The position numbers and the translations under genes are program-made. A model generated the notes under the pieces. It ran no database searches. It was given only the letters and a program-made list of their open reading frames with translations, and was not told the origin of the DNA. A DNA stretch of 42,534 nucleotides, from IMG/VR virus record IMGVR_UViG_3300024246_000045, positions 1 through 42,534 of that record. The stretch is one strand, 5' to 3'. Each line of letters starts with the position of its first letter. Within the stretch, counting starts at the first letter, position 1. The DNA is from a virus (lineage: Duplodnaviria > Caudoviricetes). Shown in pieces: positions 22,061 through 40,237 of the stretch.

Positions 22061-22654
22061 GCCTTCAGCTCCTTCCGCGCGGCGTCGCGCATTGCGGCCA
22101 GGACGATCCTCATCGCCGCCGGCTCGCGCGTGAGAAGCGTTTCCATCTCCAGGCGCATGCGGTTCATCGCCCGGCGAACACCACGATCGATCTGGTTGTT
22201 GGTGCGCTCGCGCTGCGCGGCCGAGCTCTGCATGCGCGCGGCGAGATTGCAGCTCCTGAATCGGGCCGGTGACGCTCCCACCGCTTTCGACCAGGCGCGC
22301 GCGGACGTCGTTCCAGATGGCGCGATTCCCCATGGTGGCAATCGCCCGCTCAAGAGTGAGTGGCTGTTCGTCGTCGAGCGCGGCATACTCCTGCGCCTCG
22401 CGCAGCGCCAGGTCGCGCTCGGCGAGCTGCAGCTCCCACGTCACACGAAACTGCCACACGGCAGTTCGGCCAATCGAGAAGCCCGTGCCCTTCAGCTCTT
22501 CGAGGATCTCGTTCAGCGTCGGCCGTGGCGTGCGCTGAATGCGCTCGATGAGCCACTCGCGCAGGCCGGGCTGCTCGTCGACGGCCTTGTGACCGCGGCG
22601 GCCGCGGGGCTCGACCGGCTTGGGCTTGCCGGCGGGTTTGTTACGCGAGGCCAC
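22057..22654 (-). pseudogene. Terminase small subunit (DUF3486/Mu gp27-like), frameshifted near 22250
   Basis: N-terminal half (TLNEILEEL..GFSIGRTAV..F) is in one frame; the helical C-terminal half (NLAARMQSS...RKELKA*) is in another frame and ends on the TerL start. Confidence 0.65.
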
Positions 22655-23498
22655 TGAGAGTCATCTCCTTCCAGTGACGGATGCGCGCTTCCGCAACGCG
22701 AAAGTAACTCGGCTCACGCTCCACACCGACGAATGCCCGCCGCTCCATGACCGCGGCGCAGCCGGTCGTGCCGGAGCCGGCGAATGGATCGAGGACGACG
22801 CCGTCCGCGGGCGTGGCCAGGCGAATCAGCCGCCGCATCAGATCGATCGGTTTGACGGTCGGGTGCGCGTTGTAGCGCGCCTTCGTCTTCTCTTTTTTGA
22901 GCCCGGAGAGAAGATTGATCTGACGCCGGCGAAATCCACCTTTCGCGCTCAGACCTCGATCCTTCTCTTCGGACGTTGCTCTGGCAACGTAGAACATCCG
23001 CGAGAGCGGCTCACGCCTGGCGGTCTCCTGGTCGAGGACCGCCGCGGCGTGTTCGTCGAACATCACGTTCGCGGGCCAGCGGCCGTTGTCGCGGCAATCG
23101 TCGACGTTGAGCAACGTCGGGGTGGACGCGCTCTTCCGCGCGAGCACTACCGGCTCCCATGCTGGCTTGAGCTTGGAGCGATGCTTGGGAAAGCCATTGC
23201 CGTAGAGCCACGCCAGGCAATCGTCGATTACAAAGCCCGCGTCCTCGATCGCGACCGTCATCCGGTGAAAGGTTCGTGTGCCGCCGAACGCCAGCAGGTA
23301 ACTGCCCGGCTTGGCCACGCGGAGCACCTCGCTCCACATTGCGACGTCGTAAGCCACACCTGTGGAGTCCCACTTCGCGCCGTGGAACCCGATCTCGTAA
23401 GGAGGATCGGTCACGACCACGTCGACAGAAGCATCGCCAACGAGCGGGAGCATCTTCCGGCAGTCGCCGTTGAGCAGCCTGATATCGCTCGTCATCAT
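22641..23498 (-). CDS. DNA methyltransferase, N6-A/N4-C, beta class
   Basis: TDPPY motif IV near the N-terminus; HPTVKP and LDPFAGSGTT motif I near the C-terminus. Confidence 0.93.
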   Translation of the reverse strand: MMTSDIRLLNGDCRKMLPLVGDASVDVVVTDPPYEIGFHGAKWDSTGVAYDVAMWSEVLRVAKPGSYLLAFGGTRTFHRMTVAIEDAGFVIDDCLAWLYGNGFPKHRSKLKPAWEPVVLARKSASTPTLLNVDDCRDNGRWPANVMFDEHAAAVLDQETARREPLSRMFYVARATSEEKDRGLSAKGGFRRRQINLLSGLKKEKTKARYNAHPTVKPIDLMRRLIRLATPADGVVLDPFAGSGTTGCAAVMERRAFVGVEREPSYFRVAEARIRHWKEMTLSGLA

Positions 23499-26404: not shown

Positions 26405-26463
26405 GACTACGGAGACTACGGTGAATAAAGTGACTACGGTGACTACGGTGACTACGGTGACTA
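26405..26463. repeat. 9-bp tandem direct-repeat array (GACTACGGT), about 6.5 units
   Basis: GACTACGGA GACTACGGT GAATAAAGT GACTACGGT GACTACGGT GACTACGGT GACTA. Confidence 0.92.
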
Positions 26464-26775
26464 ATTCTCGCGTTCCTGGCGGAGCCGCTCGCGCAGCTTC
26501 TTGACCTCTTCCACCGAGAACTTCAGCGTTCGCTTGCGCCAGCCGATCCGTAGCCTCGGCGGGAGCGCGTTTCGCGGATGAAGATCACCCGAGTCGACGT
26601 AGCGGTAGACCGACGAGACCGATACGTCGAGCATCCGCGCTACCTGGCCGGTGCCAATCTCGCGCGACGATGCTTCGACTGCGTTCCTCTTTTCCGGGGT
26701 TCCCGACACTGGTGAAAGTGTAACGCGGAGTGACGCGAGTTCAATTCTTTCGCACCTAACCCCTTCACTGGTCAA
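26461..26775 (-). CDS. Xis/BldC/MerR-like (HTH_17) DNA-binding protein; candidate late-gene activator
   Basis: IGTGQVARMLDVSVSSVYRYVDSGDL...F...EV..L winged-HTH pattern; exact start uncertain. Confidence 0.78.
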   Translation of the reverse strand: MTSEGVRCERIELASLRVTLSPVSGTPEKRNAVEASSREIGTGQVARMLDVSVSSVYRYVDSGDLHPRNALPPRLRIGWRKRTLKFSVEEVKKLRERLRQEREN

Positions 26776-27202
26776 CGTACTTCGTTAGCTGTTGGCGCGC
26801 CGCATCGGAGAGTCTACCTCCCGCCTCGGCATCGGTAGAGTGAATCACGATCACGGCGTCCGCCGCGTTCGGTGCTTCGTTCTTGGATGACAAGATGCGC
26901 ACGGTCGCCGAGTTGTCGCGAAATGTGGTCCCCCACGTTGGAGATTGGCCGCGTTGATCTCCGACGACGAAGTAGCGATGCCCCGTCTCAAGAGTAAGCT
27001 CCGCAGCTCGGCGCAGAAGGAACTGGCCGACTCGATCCGCCGACGTGTATCCGTTGCCCTGAAAGCGAACCTCGTAGACGTACTCGGAGAGCTGGGTTTG
27101 CGAGAACCCACCGGTTAATCCCTTCGCTTGATACGCCGTGCAATCGACAAACACAACCAACCCTATGAGCAGCGCGCTTTGGAGAGTTCTCTTCGTCAAC
27201 AT
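26765..27202 (-). CDS. Lipoprotein (CC0125/CC1285-like family)
   Basis: Signal plus Cys; T.YQ..G..GGFSQTQL..YEVRFQGNGYT..LLRRAAELTL..G..YF motif. Confidence 0.75.
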   Translation of the reverse strand: MLTKRTLQSALLIGLVVFVDCTAYQAKGLTGGFSQTQLSEYVYEVRFQGNGYTSADRVGQFLLRRAAELTLETGHRYFVVGDQRGQSPTWGTTFRDNSATVRILSSKNEAPNAADAVIVIHSTDAEAGGRLSDAARQQLTKYVDQ

Positions 27203-27220
27203 CTTTCCCCCTCGAATGAA

Positions 27221-27259
27221 GAAGCAGCCCACCCCCCGGAAAAGGGAGCGGGCTACTTC
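27221..27259 (-). terminator. Intrinsic terminator closing the repressor-TPR-peptide operon
   Basis: 16-bp stem whose three non-Watson-Crick positions are G-U pairs only on the minus strand, followed by UUCAUU. Confidence 0.75.
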
Positions 27260-27281
27260 CCCGTTTGGAACTCGCAACAGG

Positions 27282-27464
27282 TTACGGCTTCGGGAATGAC
27301 GGATCGTCGGCCGGCTTCGGCATGAGCCCGATTGCCCGGATGATGTGAACTATCCGATCGAGCCAGGACGGATCGTTCACGTCTCGCCGCGGCGCGGCAT
27401 ATACCGGGAAACTGCTGATGAGAATGACGACTAACAGAACCGCAGGCACCAAACGTCGAAACAT
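27282..27464 (-). CDS. Small secreted propeptide (candidate signalling peptide precursor)
   Basis: AAGGAGG SD; Sec signal MFRR-h-region-PVYA; amphipathic pro-helix; C-terminal LMPKP..SFPKP repeats. Confidence 0.8.
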   Translation of the reverse strand: MFRRLVPAVLLVVILISSFPVYAAPRRDVNDPSWLDRIVHIIRAIGLMPKPADDPSFPKP

Positions 27465-27514
27465 TGTTCCTCCTTGCGGTCGGCACTATGCCGATCGACA
27501 GGAGGAAGGCTACG

Positions 27515-28693
27515 TCAGTTTGCTGGAGTGGTGGCATCATGGGTCAATTGCGAATCAACACACCCAGAGACCTCACGAACGAACTCCGGCGTCGCAAGGC
27601 CCTGCCGAGCCAAGTCAACCAAGAGCCCGAGAGCCGTCGCCGCCACGGTGTCCATTCCGACCGCGAGCGCGCGCTCGAACACGTCGCGACAAATGCCGGC
27701 GACATCAACTGACGGATCGTGATCGAGCAACTCCTCGACAAGCGCTAGCCGCGTGAGCACCGCCTCACCAACCATTCCGAGGTCGTCGAAGGTTTCCCAA
27801 GCTGCACGCATCTCAGATTCCGCGTCAACTCCACGTTCTCGAATCGCCAGACGACCCAGAGACCGGAGCATCCTCGCGCGCGGAACGATCAGTCCTAGAG
27901 ACTCATACATCTCTGCAGCCACACCAAAGTATCCTCGCGCAGCAATCGCTTCACCCATCCTTGCGCAGCAATGAGCCATGTTTCCGATTTCACACGCGGT
28001 TGCCTCTTCGTCGTTCGCCGCGATCGCGTCGGCCAGAGACGCGTTGTACAGATCGAGCGCTTCGTCGAAACGCGCAAGGGAGTAAAGGACCGAGGCTTCG
28101 AGTGTCCGCGTTGCTTTTGCCCGCTGAGCCTCGCCGCAGTTTTCAAACTTGGATCGGGCCGCAGCTAGCAACCTCAGAGCGTCGTAGGGCCGCCTGCTCT
28201 CGCACGCCACCGCTGCCATTGCATGCTCAACGATGGCTGTCTGAAGCTCAGTTGCTTCGGTAGCCTTTGCTGCTTGCATGGCCAGATCGAGAACGGCGTT
28301 AGCCTCGTCGAAGTGGCCCAACAATCGGAGCGCGTTGCCCTTCTCCTTCAGCGCTCTACACGTGAGCGCCGGGATCGGGTTAGCCACGCCAGCGCTCACC
28401 GTCGCCGCAGCCTCTACCACGGCTAGCGAAAACTGGGGCTTCCATCGGTAGGAATTCACGTCGTAAGCGTCGAGCAGAGCCATCGCGACGGCCGCACGGT
28501 GGTAACAGGGATTTTCAACCGCCTTCGTGATTTCTTGCGGCGGCATCGCGAGGAGACGATCAGTTACGAGTCGGGCAAATGCGCTCTCACTTGCAGCATA
28601 GCTTGCGATCGTTGGCGCATCGCCGGCCGCGAGCTCGCGCCGCGACTCGAGGACTGCGGCGATTACTACATCAATCGTCTGTCTCGTTAGCAT
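27515..28693 (-). CDS. Tetratricopeptide-repeat-like protein (candidate RRNPP-like peptide receptor)
   Basis: Repeated helical motifs KGNALRLLGHFDEA, ASVLYSLARFDEALDLY, GNMAHCCARMGE..AA..YF..A and ARMLRSLGRL; alternative start at 28792. Confidence 0.85.
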   Translation of the reverse strand: MLTRQTIDVVIAAVLESRRELAAGDAPTIASYAASESAFARLVTDRLLAMPPQEITKAVENPCYHRAAVAMALLDAYDVNSYRWKPQFSLAVVEAAATVSAGVANPIPALTCRALKEKGNALRLLGHFDEANAVLDLAMQAAKATEATELQTAIVEHAMAAVACESRRPYDALRLLAAARSKFENCGEAQRAKATRTLEASVLYSLARFDEALDLYNASLADAIAANDEEATACEIGNMAHCCARMGEAIAARGYFGVAAEMYESLGLIVPRARMLRSLGRLAIRERGVDAESEMRAAWETFDDLGMVGEAVLTRLALVEELLDHDPSVDVAGICRDVFERALAVGMDTVAATALGLLVDLARQGLATPEFVREVSGCVDSQLTHDATTPAN

Positions 28694-29093
28694 GTGTTGT
28701 CGAATCGCCAGGTCCAGGTGATAGGTCTGCTGCGATGCCACCCATCGCTCTAACGCCGAGAGCGAACGCGTGAAGCGCGGTCTTCTGTTCATTGGCTGGA
28801 AGCGTCTCCAGAGTCGCGAGGAACTCCCGAACCATCACCGAGGGCGGTTCACCAGAAGCCTCGACGGCGCGGAGAACTATGCCGTTCGCCCGTCCCTGCT
28901 CGGCCTCTTCGAGAGCAGCGGCAATCCGAGCGAAGTTGTGGCCACCGCCTCTTTTTTCGGTTCGTTTGACCGTGCTCTCGGCGACCCCTGCAAGAACTGC
29001 AACTTCCCTCTGCGAAAGACCGAGCCTCTCCCGAAGCACGCGGATTCCCGAATCGGCGGTCGCGCGCGGGGCTGTCATGTGAGGTGTCAGCAT
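28671..29093 (-). CDS. XRE-family HTH repressor (CI-like immunity repressor)
   Basis: IRVLRERLGLSQREVAVLAGVAESTVKRTE; divergent from the Cro-like/early operon. Confidence 0.85.
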   Translation of the reverse strand: MLTPHMTAPRATADSGIRVLRERLGLSQREVAVLAGVAESTVKRTEKRGGGHNFARIAAALEEAEQGRANGIVLRAVEASGEPPSVMVREFLATLETLPANEQKTALHAFALGVRAMGGIAADLSPGPGDSTTHANETDD

Positions 29094-29114
29094 ATATCAG
29101 CTTACAGCCCCGCG

Positions 29115-29143
29115 AATATAGGTCGCACATCACGCCGGCGCAA
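29115..29143 (-). promoter_or_regulatory. Leftward sigma70-type promoter (repressor operon)
   Basis: TTGCGC-N17-TATATT on the minus strand. Confidence 0.6.
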
Positions 29144-29167
29144 GGGGCAAGTGCCCTTACATGCACC

Positions 29168-29196
29168 TTGACACGCGGTCACTGTCGCCTTACATT
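29168..29196 (+). promoter_or_regulatory. Rightward early sigma70-type promoter
   Basis: TTGACA-N17-TACATT, with the ATG 7 nt downstream of the -10 box. Confidence 0.8.
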
Positions 29197-29203
29197 AGCT
29201 GAC

Positions 29204-29500
29204 ATGCTACGTTTGCTAGGAGCACTTGATCCTAAATGCTACCCGCTCGCATGCGCCCTCAGGTCACTTCGGCTGAAAACGAAGCTGAGCGTGCGGCAGG
29301 CTGCTGCCAAAGCCAGGATCTCGGCGGCATACCTTTCTGATCTGGAGCGAGCGAAGCGCCCCGGTGCCAGCACTCACGTTCTTGATTCTCTCTCGAGAGT
29401 GTTCTCCGTGGACAGGGGCGTGCTGCGGAGGCTGGACAAGCAACAACGGCTAGCGCTGGCTTGGTCGGCAGTTTCGGAGCTTGAGCGGGAGCTCGCATGA
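29204..29500 (+). CDS. Cro/Ner-equivalent XRE HTH regulator
   Basis: LRSLRLKTKLSVRQAAAKARISAAYLSDLERAKR. Confidence 0.85.
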   Translation: MLRLLGALDPKCYPLACALRSLRLKTKLSVRQAAAKARISAAYLSDLERAKRPGASTHVLDSLSRVFSVDRGVLRRLDKQQRLALAWSAVSELERELA

Positions 29501-30062: not shown

Positions 30063-30409
30063 AGCGTCGCAACAATCAGCCCGCGGACCTCCTTCATGAG
30101 CCTCAGAAGTACGCCCCGGACAGCAGCCGTCCGTGTCTCGCTTGCGGCCACGCCGTTCCTCACAACAGCAGCGACGGCGACGGCCCTGGCGGCGGTTGCT
30201 CGAGCGTGACGTTCACCAAGGAGTGCTGCGAAAACCCGCACACACGCTACAGCGCGAAGTGCGCGAAGCGTGGCGCAATCGACAGTTGCTGGATTTCGCA
30301 GACGCCCTGCGAATGCACCGAAGACGACCGCGTGATGGCCGACCTGTACGCGCACGTCGCAACCCTCAATAGCGCGATCGCGAAGGCGGCGTTGGTGTTC
30401 ATCCTATGA
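30059..30409 (+). CDS. Cys-rich hypothetical protein
   Basis: CLACGH..H and further Cys residues; GGAGG SD; ATGA coupling to the transposase. Confidence 0.6.
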   Translation: MKRRNNQPADLLHEPQKYAPDSSRPCLACGHAVPHNSSDGDGPGGGCSSVTFTKECCENPHTRYSAKCAKRGAIDSCWISQTPCECTEDDRVMADLYAHVATLNSAIAKAALVFIL

Positions 30410-32631
30410 CCGGACTCGCCAAAGTGATCTGGCTTCCGACCTCCGTCGTTGCCGAGCTGCAGCGTCCCCGCCCGACGAGCGACCGCGCGATCCGGATGCG
30501 CGTCGAGCGCGGCGTGTACGGCCAGGAGGGGAAGGGCTGGCGCCGCGGCGCGATCGGCCGTAATTCGAACGGCATCGAGATCGCGCTCACGGCGCTATCC
30601 GCCGAAGAGCAGCTCGCCTTCTACGACTGCGACAGCGCCCCCGAGCATCAGGTTGCGGTGCAATCGGCCGGCCTCAAGGTTGTCGATGACGCGCTGGCGC
30701 GGCGCGCTCTGGCCTGGGCGAACGCCAACGACAACCAGCGGGCACGAGCGACGCGAAAGAAAGCCGCGGTAAAGGATCTGGAGCTGGCTCTTGCCGATCC
30801 TTCGCTCTCGCGGGGCAGTGTGACGGCGACGAAGGAGCGCATCGCCAAGGCTCACTGCACCTCGATCGACTCGCTGCAGCGCTGGTACGACGCCTACCTC
30901 GAGTACGGCATCGACGGCCTGGTCGACTTCAACGACGGCTCGGCGAGACGCGGGAAGACGGTGCTGCCGAAGGCGGTCCGCACGTTCTTCCGCGAGACCT
31001 GGAAGAGCGCCCCGTCGACCTCGGCCGCGATCACGGACGCGCGCCTCTACGCGTTTGACGCCGACATCAACCTGGCCGGGGTGGCCGACGACGCCTTCTA
31101 CCGCTACGCCGAGACGTTCCCTGAGCTCGAGCGCCGCGCGAACGGCGACGAACAAGACGAGCCCACGTGGATGCCCTCGACGCGGCGCGACTACACGGGT
31201 CTGGCCGCGATGAAGATCGTGCAGTCGGATCACCACATCTCCGACGTCTTCGTTCACTGCGGCGATCCGGAGTGCCGCAAGGGTCATCGGGTATGGATCA
31301 CGGTCTTCATCGACGTGCGCTCGCGCATGGTGCTGTCGTGGACGGCATCGCTCGACTATCCGAACTCGCGGACGATCCTCAAGACCTTCCGCGCGTTGGT
31401 CGACGAGTTCGGGTTGCCGGAAGGCGTCTACATCGACAACGGCAAGGACTATCGGAAGGCGTTCGGGAAGGCCACGCGCCAGTGGGGCGCGCCGGCGATC
31501 AACGAAGGGCACTTCAACAACCTGCTCGCCGCGCTGAGTCTGAAGGCCATCTTCGCGACGCCTTACCGCGCGCAGTCGAAGACGATCGAGCGCCTGTTCG
31601 GAACGTGGGTGCGGCGGATCTGGTCGACGTCACCGGCCTACGTCGGCAAGCTCGGCAAGCGCAGCGACCGGGTGACGAAGATGTTCAAGAGCCCCGAGCT
31701 GCTGCCAACGATCGAGCGGTTCCACGAAGAGCTGGCCACCGAGATCTCGCTCTACAACACCGACCGCCGTCACCGCGGGCAGGGGATGGGTGGCCGCTCA
31801 CCGCAGGAAGTCTTCCACGCCACAAGGCCCGCCGAGCCGCGCATGCCGGAGTCCACCGGGTTCGCGCTCGTCTTCTGGCAGCACTACGTGCGCATGATCC
31901 GCGGCTGCGCGGTGACGATCGGGCCGGACCGGTACCGGATCGAAGCCGAGAGCGTCGGGTTCGACTTCGAGGGCAAGTACGTCCAGATCCTCGTCAACCC
32001 CGAGGACGTGCGGCGGGCTATCGTGCTCACTGGCTGCGTCCATTGCAGCGAGAAGGCCCGCCGCGAGCAGATCCTCGGCTGTGGGTGCGCCGGCAAAGGG
32101 AGCTACCTGTGCGAGGCGGTGTTGTGGGCGCCTTCGACGCACAGCTTCGACGACCCGATCACGGCGGAGAACAACCGCGAGATCAAGCGGCTCGAGAAGT
32201 TCTGGAAGGCGCGCGCGTATAGCGGAGATCCGCGTGCGAAACAGATCGTCGAGGCGTTCCGCGGGCGCCGGCATGAGATCCAGCGGCGCATTGCCGCGGT
32301 GCGTGAGAGCGAGCAGCAACCGATGGTCGCCACCGGGGGCGGGGCGACGCTGATCCTGCCGCACTCGCACGTCGTGCGCGAAGTCGAACGGACGCGCGCG
32401 CTACTCGCCAACCCGCTGGGACTCACATCCGCGGAGCGGCTGACGATCGCCACCGTGGAGCGGCCATCGATCGCGAAGCTCGAAGCGATGGTGCCCTCAC
32501 CGCGGCTCAGGCCGGCCGCGATGCTCATCGACGTCGAGGGGATCGACGCGGCGCTCGCGGAGCTGACTCAGGAGAACAAAGGATTCGGCGGCGATCACGC
32601 CGCCGATGTAACGAAAGGAGAAACCCCATGA
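30406..32631 (+). CDS. Mu-type DDE transposase (MuA)
   Basis: N-terminal DNA-binding and HTH region (SLQRWY..Y...GIDGLVD); catalytic QSDHH, YIDNGKDY and KTIERLF; YN...H.G..G.SP. Confidence 0.95.
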   Translation: MTGLAKVIWLPTSVVAELQRPRPTSDRAIRMRVERGVYGQEGKGWRRGAIGRNSNGIEIALTALSAEEQLAFYDCDSAPEHQVAVQSAGLKVVDDALARRALAWANANDNQRARATRKKAAVKDLELALADPSLSRGSVTATKERIAKAHCTSIDSLQRWYDAYLEYGIDGLVDFNDGSARRGKTVLPKAVRTFFRETWKSAPSTSAAITDARLYAFDADINLAGVADDAFYRYAETFPELERRANGDEQDEPTWMPSTRRDYTGLAAMKIVQSDHHISDVFVHCGDPECRKGHRVWITVFIDVRSRMVLSWTASLDYPNSRTILKTFRALVDEFGLPEGVYIDNGKDYRKAFGKATRQWGAPAINEGHFNNLLAALSLKAIFATPYRAQSKTIERLFGTWVRRIWSTSPAYVGKLGKRSDRVTKMFKSPELLPTIERFHEELATEISLYNTDRRHRGQGMGGRSPQEVFHATRPAEPRMPESTGFALVFWQHYVRMIRGCAVTIGPDRYRIEAESVGFDFEGKYVQILVNPEDVRRAIVLTGCVHCSEKARREQILGCGCAGKGSYLCEAVLWAPSTHSFDDPITAENNREIKRLEKFWKARAYSGDPRAKQIVEAFRGRRHEIQRRIAAVRESEQQPMVATGGGATLILPHSHVVREVERTRALLANPLGLTSAERLTIATVERPSIAKLEAMVPSPRLRPAAMLIDVEGIDAALAELTQENKGFGGDHAADVTKGETP

Positions 32632-33668
32632 CCGTTGTGCAGTTGTTAACCCAAAGAAGTAGCGGCTCGTCTGATCACGAGCCGCCCGCTTCAAAAACCT
32701 ACTCAGTTCACGCAGAACAGGTACGCCGTAGAGCCTTGAAGCATCACGAGGATAACCCGTCCAGCACCCAGACGGAAGTATCCAAGAAGATCAACAAGTC
32801 AGTTTCGACCTACTCCTACTTCCTGAGCGGGGCCTACACCGGCGACATCGAGAAGGTCGCCAACGCCGTCGAGCGCTACCTCAACCTCAACGATCAGCAG
32901 TACCTGGCCGGAGCGCAGCCGCTCTTCGTCGAGACCTCGATCGCCTCGAACATCGAGAAGGCCCTACTGGCCGGCCGGGTGACACGGAAGATCGTGGTCA
33001 TCTCCACCGACAGCGGCGTCGGCGCTTCGATGACGCTCGAGCGGTACGCCAAGACGCACGAGGGGGCGACGCACCTCTTCTCATGCACGCCGGCGATGAA
33101 CACGAAGTGGGGGCTGCTCGGCGCGGTGCTGCGCACGCTCATCACCCGCGACTCGAGCCGGCGTGTGAGCCCGCAGAGCGCTTTCGACGAGCTGGTCTCG
33201 GCGCTCAAAGGGAGCGACCGGCTGCTCATCTTCGACGAGTCGCACTTCCTTACCCAGGACAACATCGACGTCCTGCGGTGCCTTCACGATCAGACCGGCT
33301 GCGCTCTGGCTCTGGTCGGCAACGATTCCACGCATCAGGGCCGCTTCCGCGACTTCTCAGGCGGGCGCGGCATGAAGTCGATCGCCTACACGCAGTTCAA
33401 GCGCCGGATCATCAAGGCGCTGCGCATCCGGGCCACCGACATCACCCCCGAGGATCTCGCGCTCGTGGTCGGCCAGCTCCTGCCGGCGAAGGTGCTTAAA
33501 GAGACGATCGCGCGTCTCGTGATCGAGGCAACGACAAACGGCGGGATCGGCCGCGTCGTGGCGATCGTGCAGCTCGCCCGGATGTACGCCGACGATCCAC
33601 AGACAACGTCAACCGCCAACGTCCTGGCCGCGCTCGAAGACGCGCAGCTCGAAGTAGGTGCCCAATGA
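32628..33668 (+). CDS. MuB-like AAA transposition protein
   Basis: N-terminal HTH (TQTEVSKKI..S.ST.S..L.G.Y.GD), FVETS, Walker B LLIFDESH, LR.LHD, LVGN; Walker A is degenerate. Confidence 0.9.
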   Translation: MTVVQLLTQRSSGSSDHEPPASKTYSVHAEQVRRRALKHHEDNPSSTQTEVSKKINKSVSTYSYFLSGAYTGDIEKVANAVERYLNLNDQQYLAGAQPLFVETSIASNIEKALLAGRVTRKIVVISTDSGVGASMTLERYAKTHEGATHLFSCTPAMNTKWGLLGAVLRTLITRDSSRRVSPQSAFDELVSALKGSDRLLIFDESHFLTQDNIDVLRCLHDQTGCALALVGNDSTHQGRFRDFSGGRGMKSIAYTQFKRRIIKALRIRATDITPEDLALVVGQLLPAKVLKETIARLVIEATTNGGIGRVVAIVQLARMYADDPQTTSTANVLAALEDAQLEVGAQ

Positions 33669-39929: not shown

Positions 39930-40158
39930 CACGCCGCTTCCGCTGATCAGATGGTGAACCCGGTGCCGTTCCGCGCGAGAACTTCCCGCAACCCACGCTG
40001 CGGTCACGACTTCGCCGATCAGCGGAAGCGGCGTGCACTACTTCCGCTGACTCTGCCGGTAGAAGCGACGCTTCAACGGCCCCGGAATGTGCCTTCAACG
40101 GCCGTTACAGGCGGGTCTGCGGCCCATTTGGTCGAGTGCCCGCTACTTCCGCTGATCG
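39930..40158. repeat. Candidate transposase-binding sites at the phage end
   Basis: CTTCCGCTGA at 39937, 40041 and 40146 (+) and 40019-40028 (-); 19-bp perfect inverted repeat 39930-39948/40017-40035; CTTCAACGGCC at 40071 and 40093. Confidence 0.65.
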
Positions 40159-40188: not shown

Positions 40189-40237
40189 TGCCCGATGTGC
40201 CCGATGTGCCCGATGTGCCCGATGTGCCCGATGTGCC
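40189..40237. repeat. 9-bp tandem repeat (TGCCCGATG) x5 plus a partial unit
   Basis: Five exact copies at 40189-40233 followed by TGCC. Confidence 0.93.

Follow-up and report, generated by a model that had tools for sequence, protein, structure and literature searches.

We analysed a stretch of viral DNA of 42,534 nt (IMG/VR record IMGVR_UViG_3300024246_000045, positions 1 to 42,534; hereafter the window), which carries a Mu-like prophage, and we considered in particular the immunity operon of this prophage. In this operon a gene for an XRE repressor, a gene for a soluble tetratricopeptide repeat (TPR) protein and an open reading frame (ORF) for a 60-aa protein with a signal peptide form one minus-strand unit, divergent from cro and the transposase A and B genes. 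From the DNA sequence and from comparisons with related genomes, the module is likely to be a peptide-controlled lysogeny switch. Precisely, the reading that we favour, with moderate confidence, is a switch working like Rap-Phr, in which the tail of the small protein, exported, trimmed and re-imported, would control the TPR protein, and the latter would act as an anti-repressor of the XRE protein.

An original prediction, made from the letters of the window alone, had read the operon as a repressor, an overlapping TPR protein and a small secreted protein, and these three genes were confirmed (coordinates in Table 1). The gene of the TPR protein, which we call the receptor, starts at an ATG read within the 3′ end of the XRE gene, with an overlap of 23 nt, and is separated by 50 nt from the propeptide gene. 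Its TPR_12 match scored 29.3 bits, slightly below the Pfam cut-off of 30.1, and the Pfam search gave no match to any helix-turn-helix (HTH) family in this protein, in line with the original prediction, which had seen no HTH there. The Pfam search also gave no S24 peptidase match in the window XRE protein; therefore, self-cleavage driven by RecA would not serve this repressor, and some different input would be needed. The propeptide ORF has a AAGGAGGAA Shine-Dalgarno (SD) sequence, a basic N-terminus, a hydrophobic core and a signal-peptidase-like site (VYA/A), as read by eye. No NCBIfam or PHROG family was found for either the receptor or the peptide, and no Pfam family for the peptide. The operon had also been said to be closed by a terminator. 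In this case the hairpin itself stood, being strong and better than all of its shuffled versions, and is likely a terminator, but it has just a modest T-tail and was not among the terminators listed by the scanner.

By its gene content (DDE transposase, B protein, Gam, Mu-type head genes and repeated end sites) the element is a Mu-like transposable prophage, and terminase and portal genes were also found in the window. The flanking gene for a UvrD helicase, whose product is 93% identical to that of a Thermoanaerobaculia metagenome-assembled genome (L001), places the host in the Thermoanaerobaculia (Acidobacteriota), and one of the receptor relatives was labelled Thermoanaerobaculia as well; an earlier guess at an acidobacterial host was thus right. 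A search of plasmids with the helicase gave no information on the host.

The trio is kept in a second transposable prophage, L223, which is also Mu-like and in which the genes follow each other as in the window, except that the peptide gene is inverted. Its Cro, XRE and receptor proteins are 80%, 55% and 41% identical to those of the window, respectively, its peptide ends in DDPQYPHP and its switch region aligns closely with that of the window. Two more loci (L263 and L265) were identical to L223, one (L264) was identical to the window, and a short contig (L266) carried a related switch, the third of its kind. A different, integrase-bearing element (L226, in contig C57 of genome G001) has a divergent cro-like gene, an XRE gene, a receptor and a peptide; the receptor of L226 keeps the HxxxCxxC motif of its chromosomal relatives (see below) despite having no preceding sigma factor gene. 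In three phage-like elements the receptor gene overlaps the repressor gene, and the repressors of these elements are short (126-140 aa). A related transposase was present in 6/401 genomes. The regions fetched around five related transposase loci (other than that of G001) contained neither receptor nor peptide, at least one of these regions being cut by a contig end; in the closest of the five Mu-like loci an XRE-S24 repressor occupies the same slot and there is no pair.

An adjacent small ORF for a putatively secreted protein turned out to be conserved among the receptor homologues, as the original prediction had supposed. The peptides of the family are about 57-75 aa long and consist of a signal peptide, a basic helix of amphipathic appearance and a tail that is acidic and rich in Pro (P-x-P or PPG). 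Their ORFs lie directly 3′ of the receptor genes, either co-oriented or convergent, and the pairing is kept in both layouts. We built the peptide profile from 51 ORFs chosen near receptors (alignment A3), so any pairing count including these 51 ORFs is circular. In this alignment the proline at position 58 (P58) is invariant, an AxA-like site was present in 46/51 members and a lipobox in 0/51, which ruled out the peptide as a lipoprotein. Among the loci fetched by the peptide alone, a receptor was present in 24 out of 26, or in 22 out of 24 when two training loci were removed, and one of the receptor-less loci was truncated at the end of its contig. Genome-wide, the profile had 60 matches in five genomes, of which 53 were at most 1 kb from the 3′ end of a receptor gene, versus 0.2 expected, four weak rows and one fragment row of receptor matches having been left out of this count. 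The pairing counts include L106 (genome G094) and L297 (genome G038), both genomes being unpublished, and no conclusion depends on these two alone. In the genomes searched the profile had no match outside the order of the host: the matching genomes (71 of the 401 from the class and 6 of the 301 from the phylum) were all from the order set. At six loci (L143, L284, L287, L289, L290 and L293) a single receptor is accompanied by two or three peptide genes in tandem, whose tails differ slightly.

Tandem paralogues keep WPKP versus WPHP tails by receptor clade across genomes, and like tails are grouped in the receptor tree, which was built by a quick method and has long branches around the window sequence. 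A variant of the window peptide (P0157) has 10 changes, none of them within the last 12 residues; this variant and a receptor (P0001) 85% identical to that of the window each came from a contig of 2242 nt, probably the same one.

A conserved leader precedes the peptide genes. A palindrome of the GAGGGCGCCCTC type was found 5′ of 36/51 peptide genes, compared with 6/1072 background windows, and its 3′ half is predicted to pair with the SD sequence. The SD sequence was predicted to be paired in 48/51 leaders of the family versus 21/51 control genes. The pairing of each SD sequence with its own anti-SD sequence had an energy of -14.55 kcal/mol versus -13.44 for shuffled partners, with 0/5000 permutations as good, a value that is inflated by related sequences. 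The leader as a whole consists of the palindrome, an inner hairpin and the SD sequence, with matching changes on both sides (e.g. in L081, L087, L090 and L182), and no Rfam match was found in five loci; it is possibly an undescribed translational control element. In the window the anti-SD sequence begins 5 nt after the receptor stop codon, hence a terminating ribosome would open it, and we consider this leader hairpin a candidate translational coupler.

The AlphaFold model of the window receptor (pLDDT 93.5) is all-helical and forms a TPR superhelix. Foldseek ranked LGN first, followed by RapJ, a phage Rap and RapF (TM-scores of 0.50-0.57; 0.57 for RapF and 0.56 for 8rtc), and RapI was also among the fold matches. 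With VIA-align, Rap-phi105 (8rte) had a Z of 20.6 (root-mean-square deviation, rmsd, 4.8; 312 residues aligned) and NprR a Z of 19.8 (5.2; 293), but APPBP2 (Z 24.1, rmsd 4.9, 333 aligned) and LGN (Z 22.5) ranked higher; the receptor resembles Rap and NprR in fold, and the ranking does not single out RRNPP proteins. Most of the top matches had been solved with a peptide or a degron bound. The family profile matches RapJ at 3e-16 but LGN at 2e-26; since scores as good as those of Rap were obtained with LGN and further TPR proteins, the receptor is at most a possible member of RRNPP proper. Residue N238 is kept in 113 of the 129 relatives and aligns, in a weak alignment (E=0.85), to RapJ N225, which binds the backbone of PhrC and is essential (PMC3601965). 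When the receptor was co-folded with the 37-residue mature region of the peptide, the ipSAE was 0.48 versus 0.02 for the best of three controls, with contacts agreeing at 76% or more and a partner pLDDT of at least 53. In the calibration the ipSAE mark was reached by 116/157 solved pairs and 2/215 mismatched ones, and the range of 0.60 or under contained just 18 solved pairs and both mismatches; hence a complex was predicted above its controls, but with weak support.

Several observations weigh against the switch that we favour. The full trio was seen in just two Mu-like prophages that are independent of each other, and trios of XRE, TPR and peptide genes also occur in loci in which no phage genes were detected (L227, L228, L229, L230 and L232). 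A peptide neighbour at 15 bits or more was present for just 64/118 full-length receptors, some of these matches being weak, and by coordinates for 50/102 receptors in five genomes; one XRE-TPR pair (L105/L224) showed no peptide. A second variant of the window peptide (P0158) changes the penultimate residue of the tail (Lys). The best structural matches of the receptor are APPBP2 and LGN, above Rap, and its fold is that of a generic TPR protein. In Rap, Asp192 pairs with an Arg of Phr (PMC3601965), and the window receptor has a Ser aligned to RapJ D192. As regards covariation of receptor and peptide, like tails are indeed grouped by receptor clade, but the Mantel correlation with receptor similarity did not single out the tail (0.29 for the signal, 0.21 for the middle part and 0.25 for the tail, some tails being mis-parsed); as the tail is no better than the signal, co-inheritance by linkage alone can explain the covariation. 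Finally, the host has an outer membrane, which a cell-to-cell signal peptide must cross twice. As a separate observation, genes for protealysin-like M4 peptidases lie near three of the XRE-receptor-peptide loci (L228, L229 and L230) and are candidates for either a processing enzyme or a regulated target.

The receptors without a peptide, about half of the total, also favour an explanation in which the small protein is not a ligand, but acts on membranes or in exclusion, or is the product of a regulated output gene, and the TPR protein is a plain co-repressor or anti-repressor with some other input. Small toxic genes typically have leaders that occlude the SD sequence, and both the leader described above and the basic, amphipathic-looking helix of the mature part would suit such a protein. 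We consider this explanation quite improbable: a peptide gene nearly always has a receptor beside it (22/24 loci), the tail is clade-specific and has an invariant Pro, and the complex model was above all three controls, if weakly.

The pair is not specific to phages. An exhaustive search with the receptor gave 729 representatives at E ≤ 0.001, of which we took the best 150, and 129 roughly full-length sequences, the window receptor included, were aligned (A2); a word-based protein search had returned just two close receptors, and the sequences in the alignment of close relatives (A1) had diverged too much to be scanned for a pattern. Each of the ten receptor clusters listed was mostly from Acidobacteriota. 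Receptors at E ≤ 1e-25 were present in 118/127 genomes of the host's order, with 11-38 matches in the large genomes. Most of them are about 450 aa long, start with HxxxCxxC and are encoded after an extracytoplasmic function (ECF) sigma factor gene, the identity of the sigma factor having been confirmed for one ECF-linked copy; a minority follows an XRE gene, as in the window. We take the HxxxCxxC head to be a zinc anti-sigma head, Pfam having given no call for it, and the window receptor has neither this head nor a HTH. One widespread group of ECF-linked receptors (L106-L129), with no adjacent peptide detected, may consist of orphan receptors. Direct searches of viral contigs and annotated phages found no close relatives of the receptor, and a transposase scan of viral contigs found none carrying such relatives. 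Judged by these comparisons, the TPR-peptide pair belongs to a large family of one acidobacterial order, usually wired to ECF sigma factors, a link that the original prediction did not have. The phage likely took the pair from this host family, in which the TPR domain has a zinc head of the anti-sigma type and is encoded after an ECF sigma factor.

Two resemblances link the phage copies with chromosomal ones. The ECF-linked peptide of L149, in genome G065, ends in DPSFPHP, one residue off the DPSFPKP of the window, and cross-talk between host and phage is possible. Moreover, GGGTAG...CAC elements that resemble an ECF promoter recur about 60-95 nt 5′ of peptide genes, both chromosomal ones and that of L223; if they are ECF promoters, they would give positive feedback on peptide production. 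Both the tail in G065 and the GGGTAG element that the L223 peptide gene shares with a chromosomal clade would fit a pair that is cargo, manipulating or eavesdropping on the ECF-sigma/peptide circuits of the host with no direct hold on the repressor, as would the five other related transposase loci without the pair (at least one of them cut by a contig end). This seems improbable to us, in that the window receptor has lost the zinc anti-sigma-type head, the receptor gene overlaps the repressor gene in three phage-like elements and the repressors of these are short, versus the S24 repressor of the related phage.

In the Rap-Phr-like switch that we prefer, the 60-aa protein would be exported by Sec and cleaved after VYA, and trimming near acidic residues would leave about 5-8 residues ending in SFPKP (575-902 Da). 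This tail would pass the outer membrane and be taken up via an oligopeptide ABC transporter; PF00496 proteins (peptide/nickel-type ABC binding proteins) were present in 5/5 relatives, which shows only that a re-import route may exist. The tail would then bind in the TPR groove through N120 and N238 and change the action of the receptor on the XRE repressor. We opt for the polarity of pLS20, in which the peptide-free receptor would neutralise the repressor, allowing transposition and lysis, and the peptide of resident or neighbouring lysogens would switch the receptor off and so favour lysogeny; the opposite polarity seems less likely. That density is sensed from cell to cell, in a host with two membranes, is pure inference on our part.

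Acidobacteriota are diderm and porins have a limit of about 600 Da. Candidate tails of 672-902 Da exceed this limit, and the same pair could work within a single cell, by periplasmic cycling or through a precursor that accumulates unexported upon failure of export, as a timer or a sensor of envelope state for the repressor. The chromosomal copies, which follow ECF sigma factors, typical sensors of envelope states, are consistent with such a cell-autonomous role, and the SD-occluding leader suggests a tight coupling to receptor translation. However, a tail of 5 residues (575 Da) could pass porins, and the many paralogues per genome with differing tails (13 peptide matches in G001) fit separate channels better, so that we regard a role confined to the cell as unlikely.

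The features of the window are collected in Table 1. The four 10-nt repeats at the right end of the prophage are likely sites of the transposase. The scan for rightward promoters found 1 versus 0.7 expected by chance; as this count is near chance, the support for the promoter is its conservation in L223, and the cro transcript is likely leaderless. The leftward candidate scored below the threshold of the promoter scanner. A leaderless repressor transcript was considered and dropped, the conserved TTGCGC-17-TATATT 21 nt upstream fitting better. The 9-nt inverted pair of the switch region is present also in L223, and the whole region is conserved in the alignment of the two. The CC0125-family lipoprotein, encoded 3′ of the hairpin, is 47% identical to its counterpart in L223, and a gene for an excisionase-like HTH protein (26461-26775) follows the module and the lipoprotein gene. 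An N6/N4 DNA methylase gene (22641-23498) lies directly 5′ of the terminase gene; such a gene was near the terminase or the transposase in 5/6 related prophage loci. A 9-nt unit (GATGTGCCC) forms a short tandem run (40190-40235) where the prophage ends and borders on the helicase gene of the host.

Table 1. Features of the immunity operon and of the surrounding prophage, with positions in the window.
Feature	Position	Strand	Details
CC0125-family lipoprotein gene	26765-27202	minus	NCBIfam NF047637, 67 bits vs cut-off 40
Strong hairpin (likely terminator)	27215-27260 (hairpin 27221-27260)	minus	-39.2 kcal/mol for 76 nt folded; z=-4.43; 0/200 shuffles as good
Propeptide	27282-27464	minus	60 aa; signal peptide 1-23, amphipathic-looking helix, acidic Pro-rich tail DDPSFPKP
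Hairpin pairing CCTTCCTCCT with the propeptide SD sequence (candidate coupler)	27468-27509	minus	z=-3.95; 5 nt past receptor stop
Soluble TPR protein, candidate receptor	27515-28693	minus	392 aa; ATG at 28693; TPR_12 E=1e-6
XRE repressor	28671-29093	minus	140 aa; HTH and helical tail; Pfam HTH_31 E=3e-6
Switch region	29094-29205		inverted 9-nt arms 29094-29102 and 29197-29205, candidate operator sites
Candidate leftward promoter TTGCGC-17-TATATT	29115-29143	minus	by eye; equivalents in L223 and L266
Rightward sigma-70-like promoter TTGACA-17-TACATT	29168-29196	plus	7 nt 5′ of cro ATG at 29204
Cro/Ner-like XRE protein	29204-29500	plus	HTH_31 E=1e-9; opens the early operon
Mu-like transposase A and AAA+ B protein	30406-33668	plus	PHROG 310 (transposase, E=2e-67) and PHROG 296
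Four exact 10-nt repeats CTTCCGCTGA	39937-40155		4 found vs 0.14 expected; near the right end of the prophage

Among known systems, the Rap-Phr-Rco system of pLS20 is alike in that a mobile element is controlled by a repressor together with a TPR protein lacking a HTH and a propeptide that is secreted. In that system RappLS20 binds RcopLS20 directly and the Phr*pLS20 peptide releases it (PMC7430634). The pLS20 Rap fold (6t3h) matches the window receptor with a Z of 18.9 (rmsd 5.6, 300 aligned), and the identity of the receptor to Rap chains is 13-14%. Unlike pLS20, the window element is a transposable prophage of a two-membrane acidobacterium, with a Pro-rich acidic peptide tail and a SD-occluding leader. 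Arbitrium (AimR-AimP-AimX of SPbeta-like Bacillus phages) is also a phage TPR receptor with a propeptide (AimR Z 16.7, rmsd 4.8, 275 aligned), secreted and acting at the lysis-lysogeny decision (PMC11945551). AimR, however, binds DNA by its own HTH and drives aimX, whereas the window receptor has no HTH match and is encoded together with a separate XRE protein. The Rap folds of the ICEBs1 RapI-PhrI/ImmR system and of phage Rap-Phr systems (phi3T, phi105) were among the top matches. ICEBs1 acts through the ImmA protease; unlike it, the window operon has no protease gene, and the Asp by which Rap pairs with an Arg of Phr has no counterpart in the window receptor. Excision of ICEBs1 is regulated by RapI (PMC9765709). 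The receptor domain and the peptide family are common to the phage copy and to the chromosomal Thermoanaerobaculia cassettes of ECF sigma factor, zinc-head TPR protein and peptide; unlike these, the phage copy has no HxxxCxxC head and is coupled to an XRE protein rather than to a sigma factor.

Screening for RRNPP systems has used five criteria, namely a propeptide of 10-100 aa, Sec export, a receptor of about 250-500 aa, TPRs and adjacent genes (PMC10075063). The window has a propeptide of 60 aa, a receptor of 392 aa with TPRs and adjoining genes; for Sec export there are the n/h/c layout read by eye and the AxA-like site of the family. The range described in the text of PMC10075063 and PMC12700828 is Bacillota and their elements, and the host here belongs to the Thermoanaerobaculia. 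Because its host is outside this range and its descent from RRNPP is no more than possible, we considered the module as working like Rap-Phr and not as a member of RRNPP. A literature search, which did not extend to supplements and subscription journals, found no paper dealing with this family, with acidobacterial systems of the RRNPP type or with transposable phages that signal by peptides, and the re-classification of ECF sigma factors (PMC7826278) names no such ECF group in the passages searched.

In the accounts given in the text of PMC10075063, PMC9765709 and PMC12700828, quorum sensing by cytoplasmic peptide receptors and peptide communication by phages are described just for Bacillota and their elements. 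The window adds the case of a transposable phage, a counterpart with an S24 repressor and a SD-occluding leader. A broader proposal, which we advance tentatively and hold to be possible rather than probable, is that transposable phages of a soil phylum of Gram-negative type use a peptide language of their own: the pair would have been captured from the ECF-sigma signalling family of Acidobacteria, itself undescribed, with the anti-sigma head swapped for a contact with the repressor and SOS autocleavage replaced by peptide control, giving a decision of the arbitrium kind, with an evolutionary origin separate from that of RRNPP, which would operate across an outer membrane and maybe cross-talk with the channels of the host. 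The many paralogues of the host are a ready specificity code and, as the module consists of three short genes and one promoter, binding and regulation are testable in E. coli with synthetic peptides. If the switch that we favour is true, it raises the question of how a peptide crosses the outer membrane twice, and both peptide-receptor signalling and phage communication would have a wider known range, extending to a host with two membranes and to a transposable phage.

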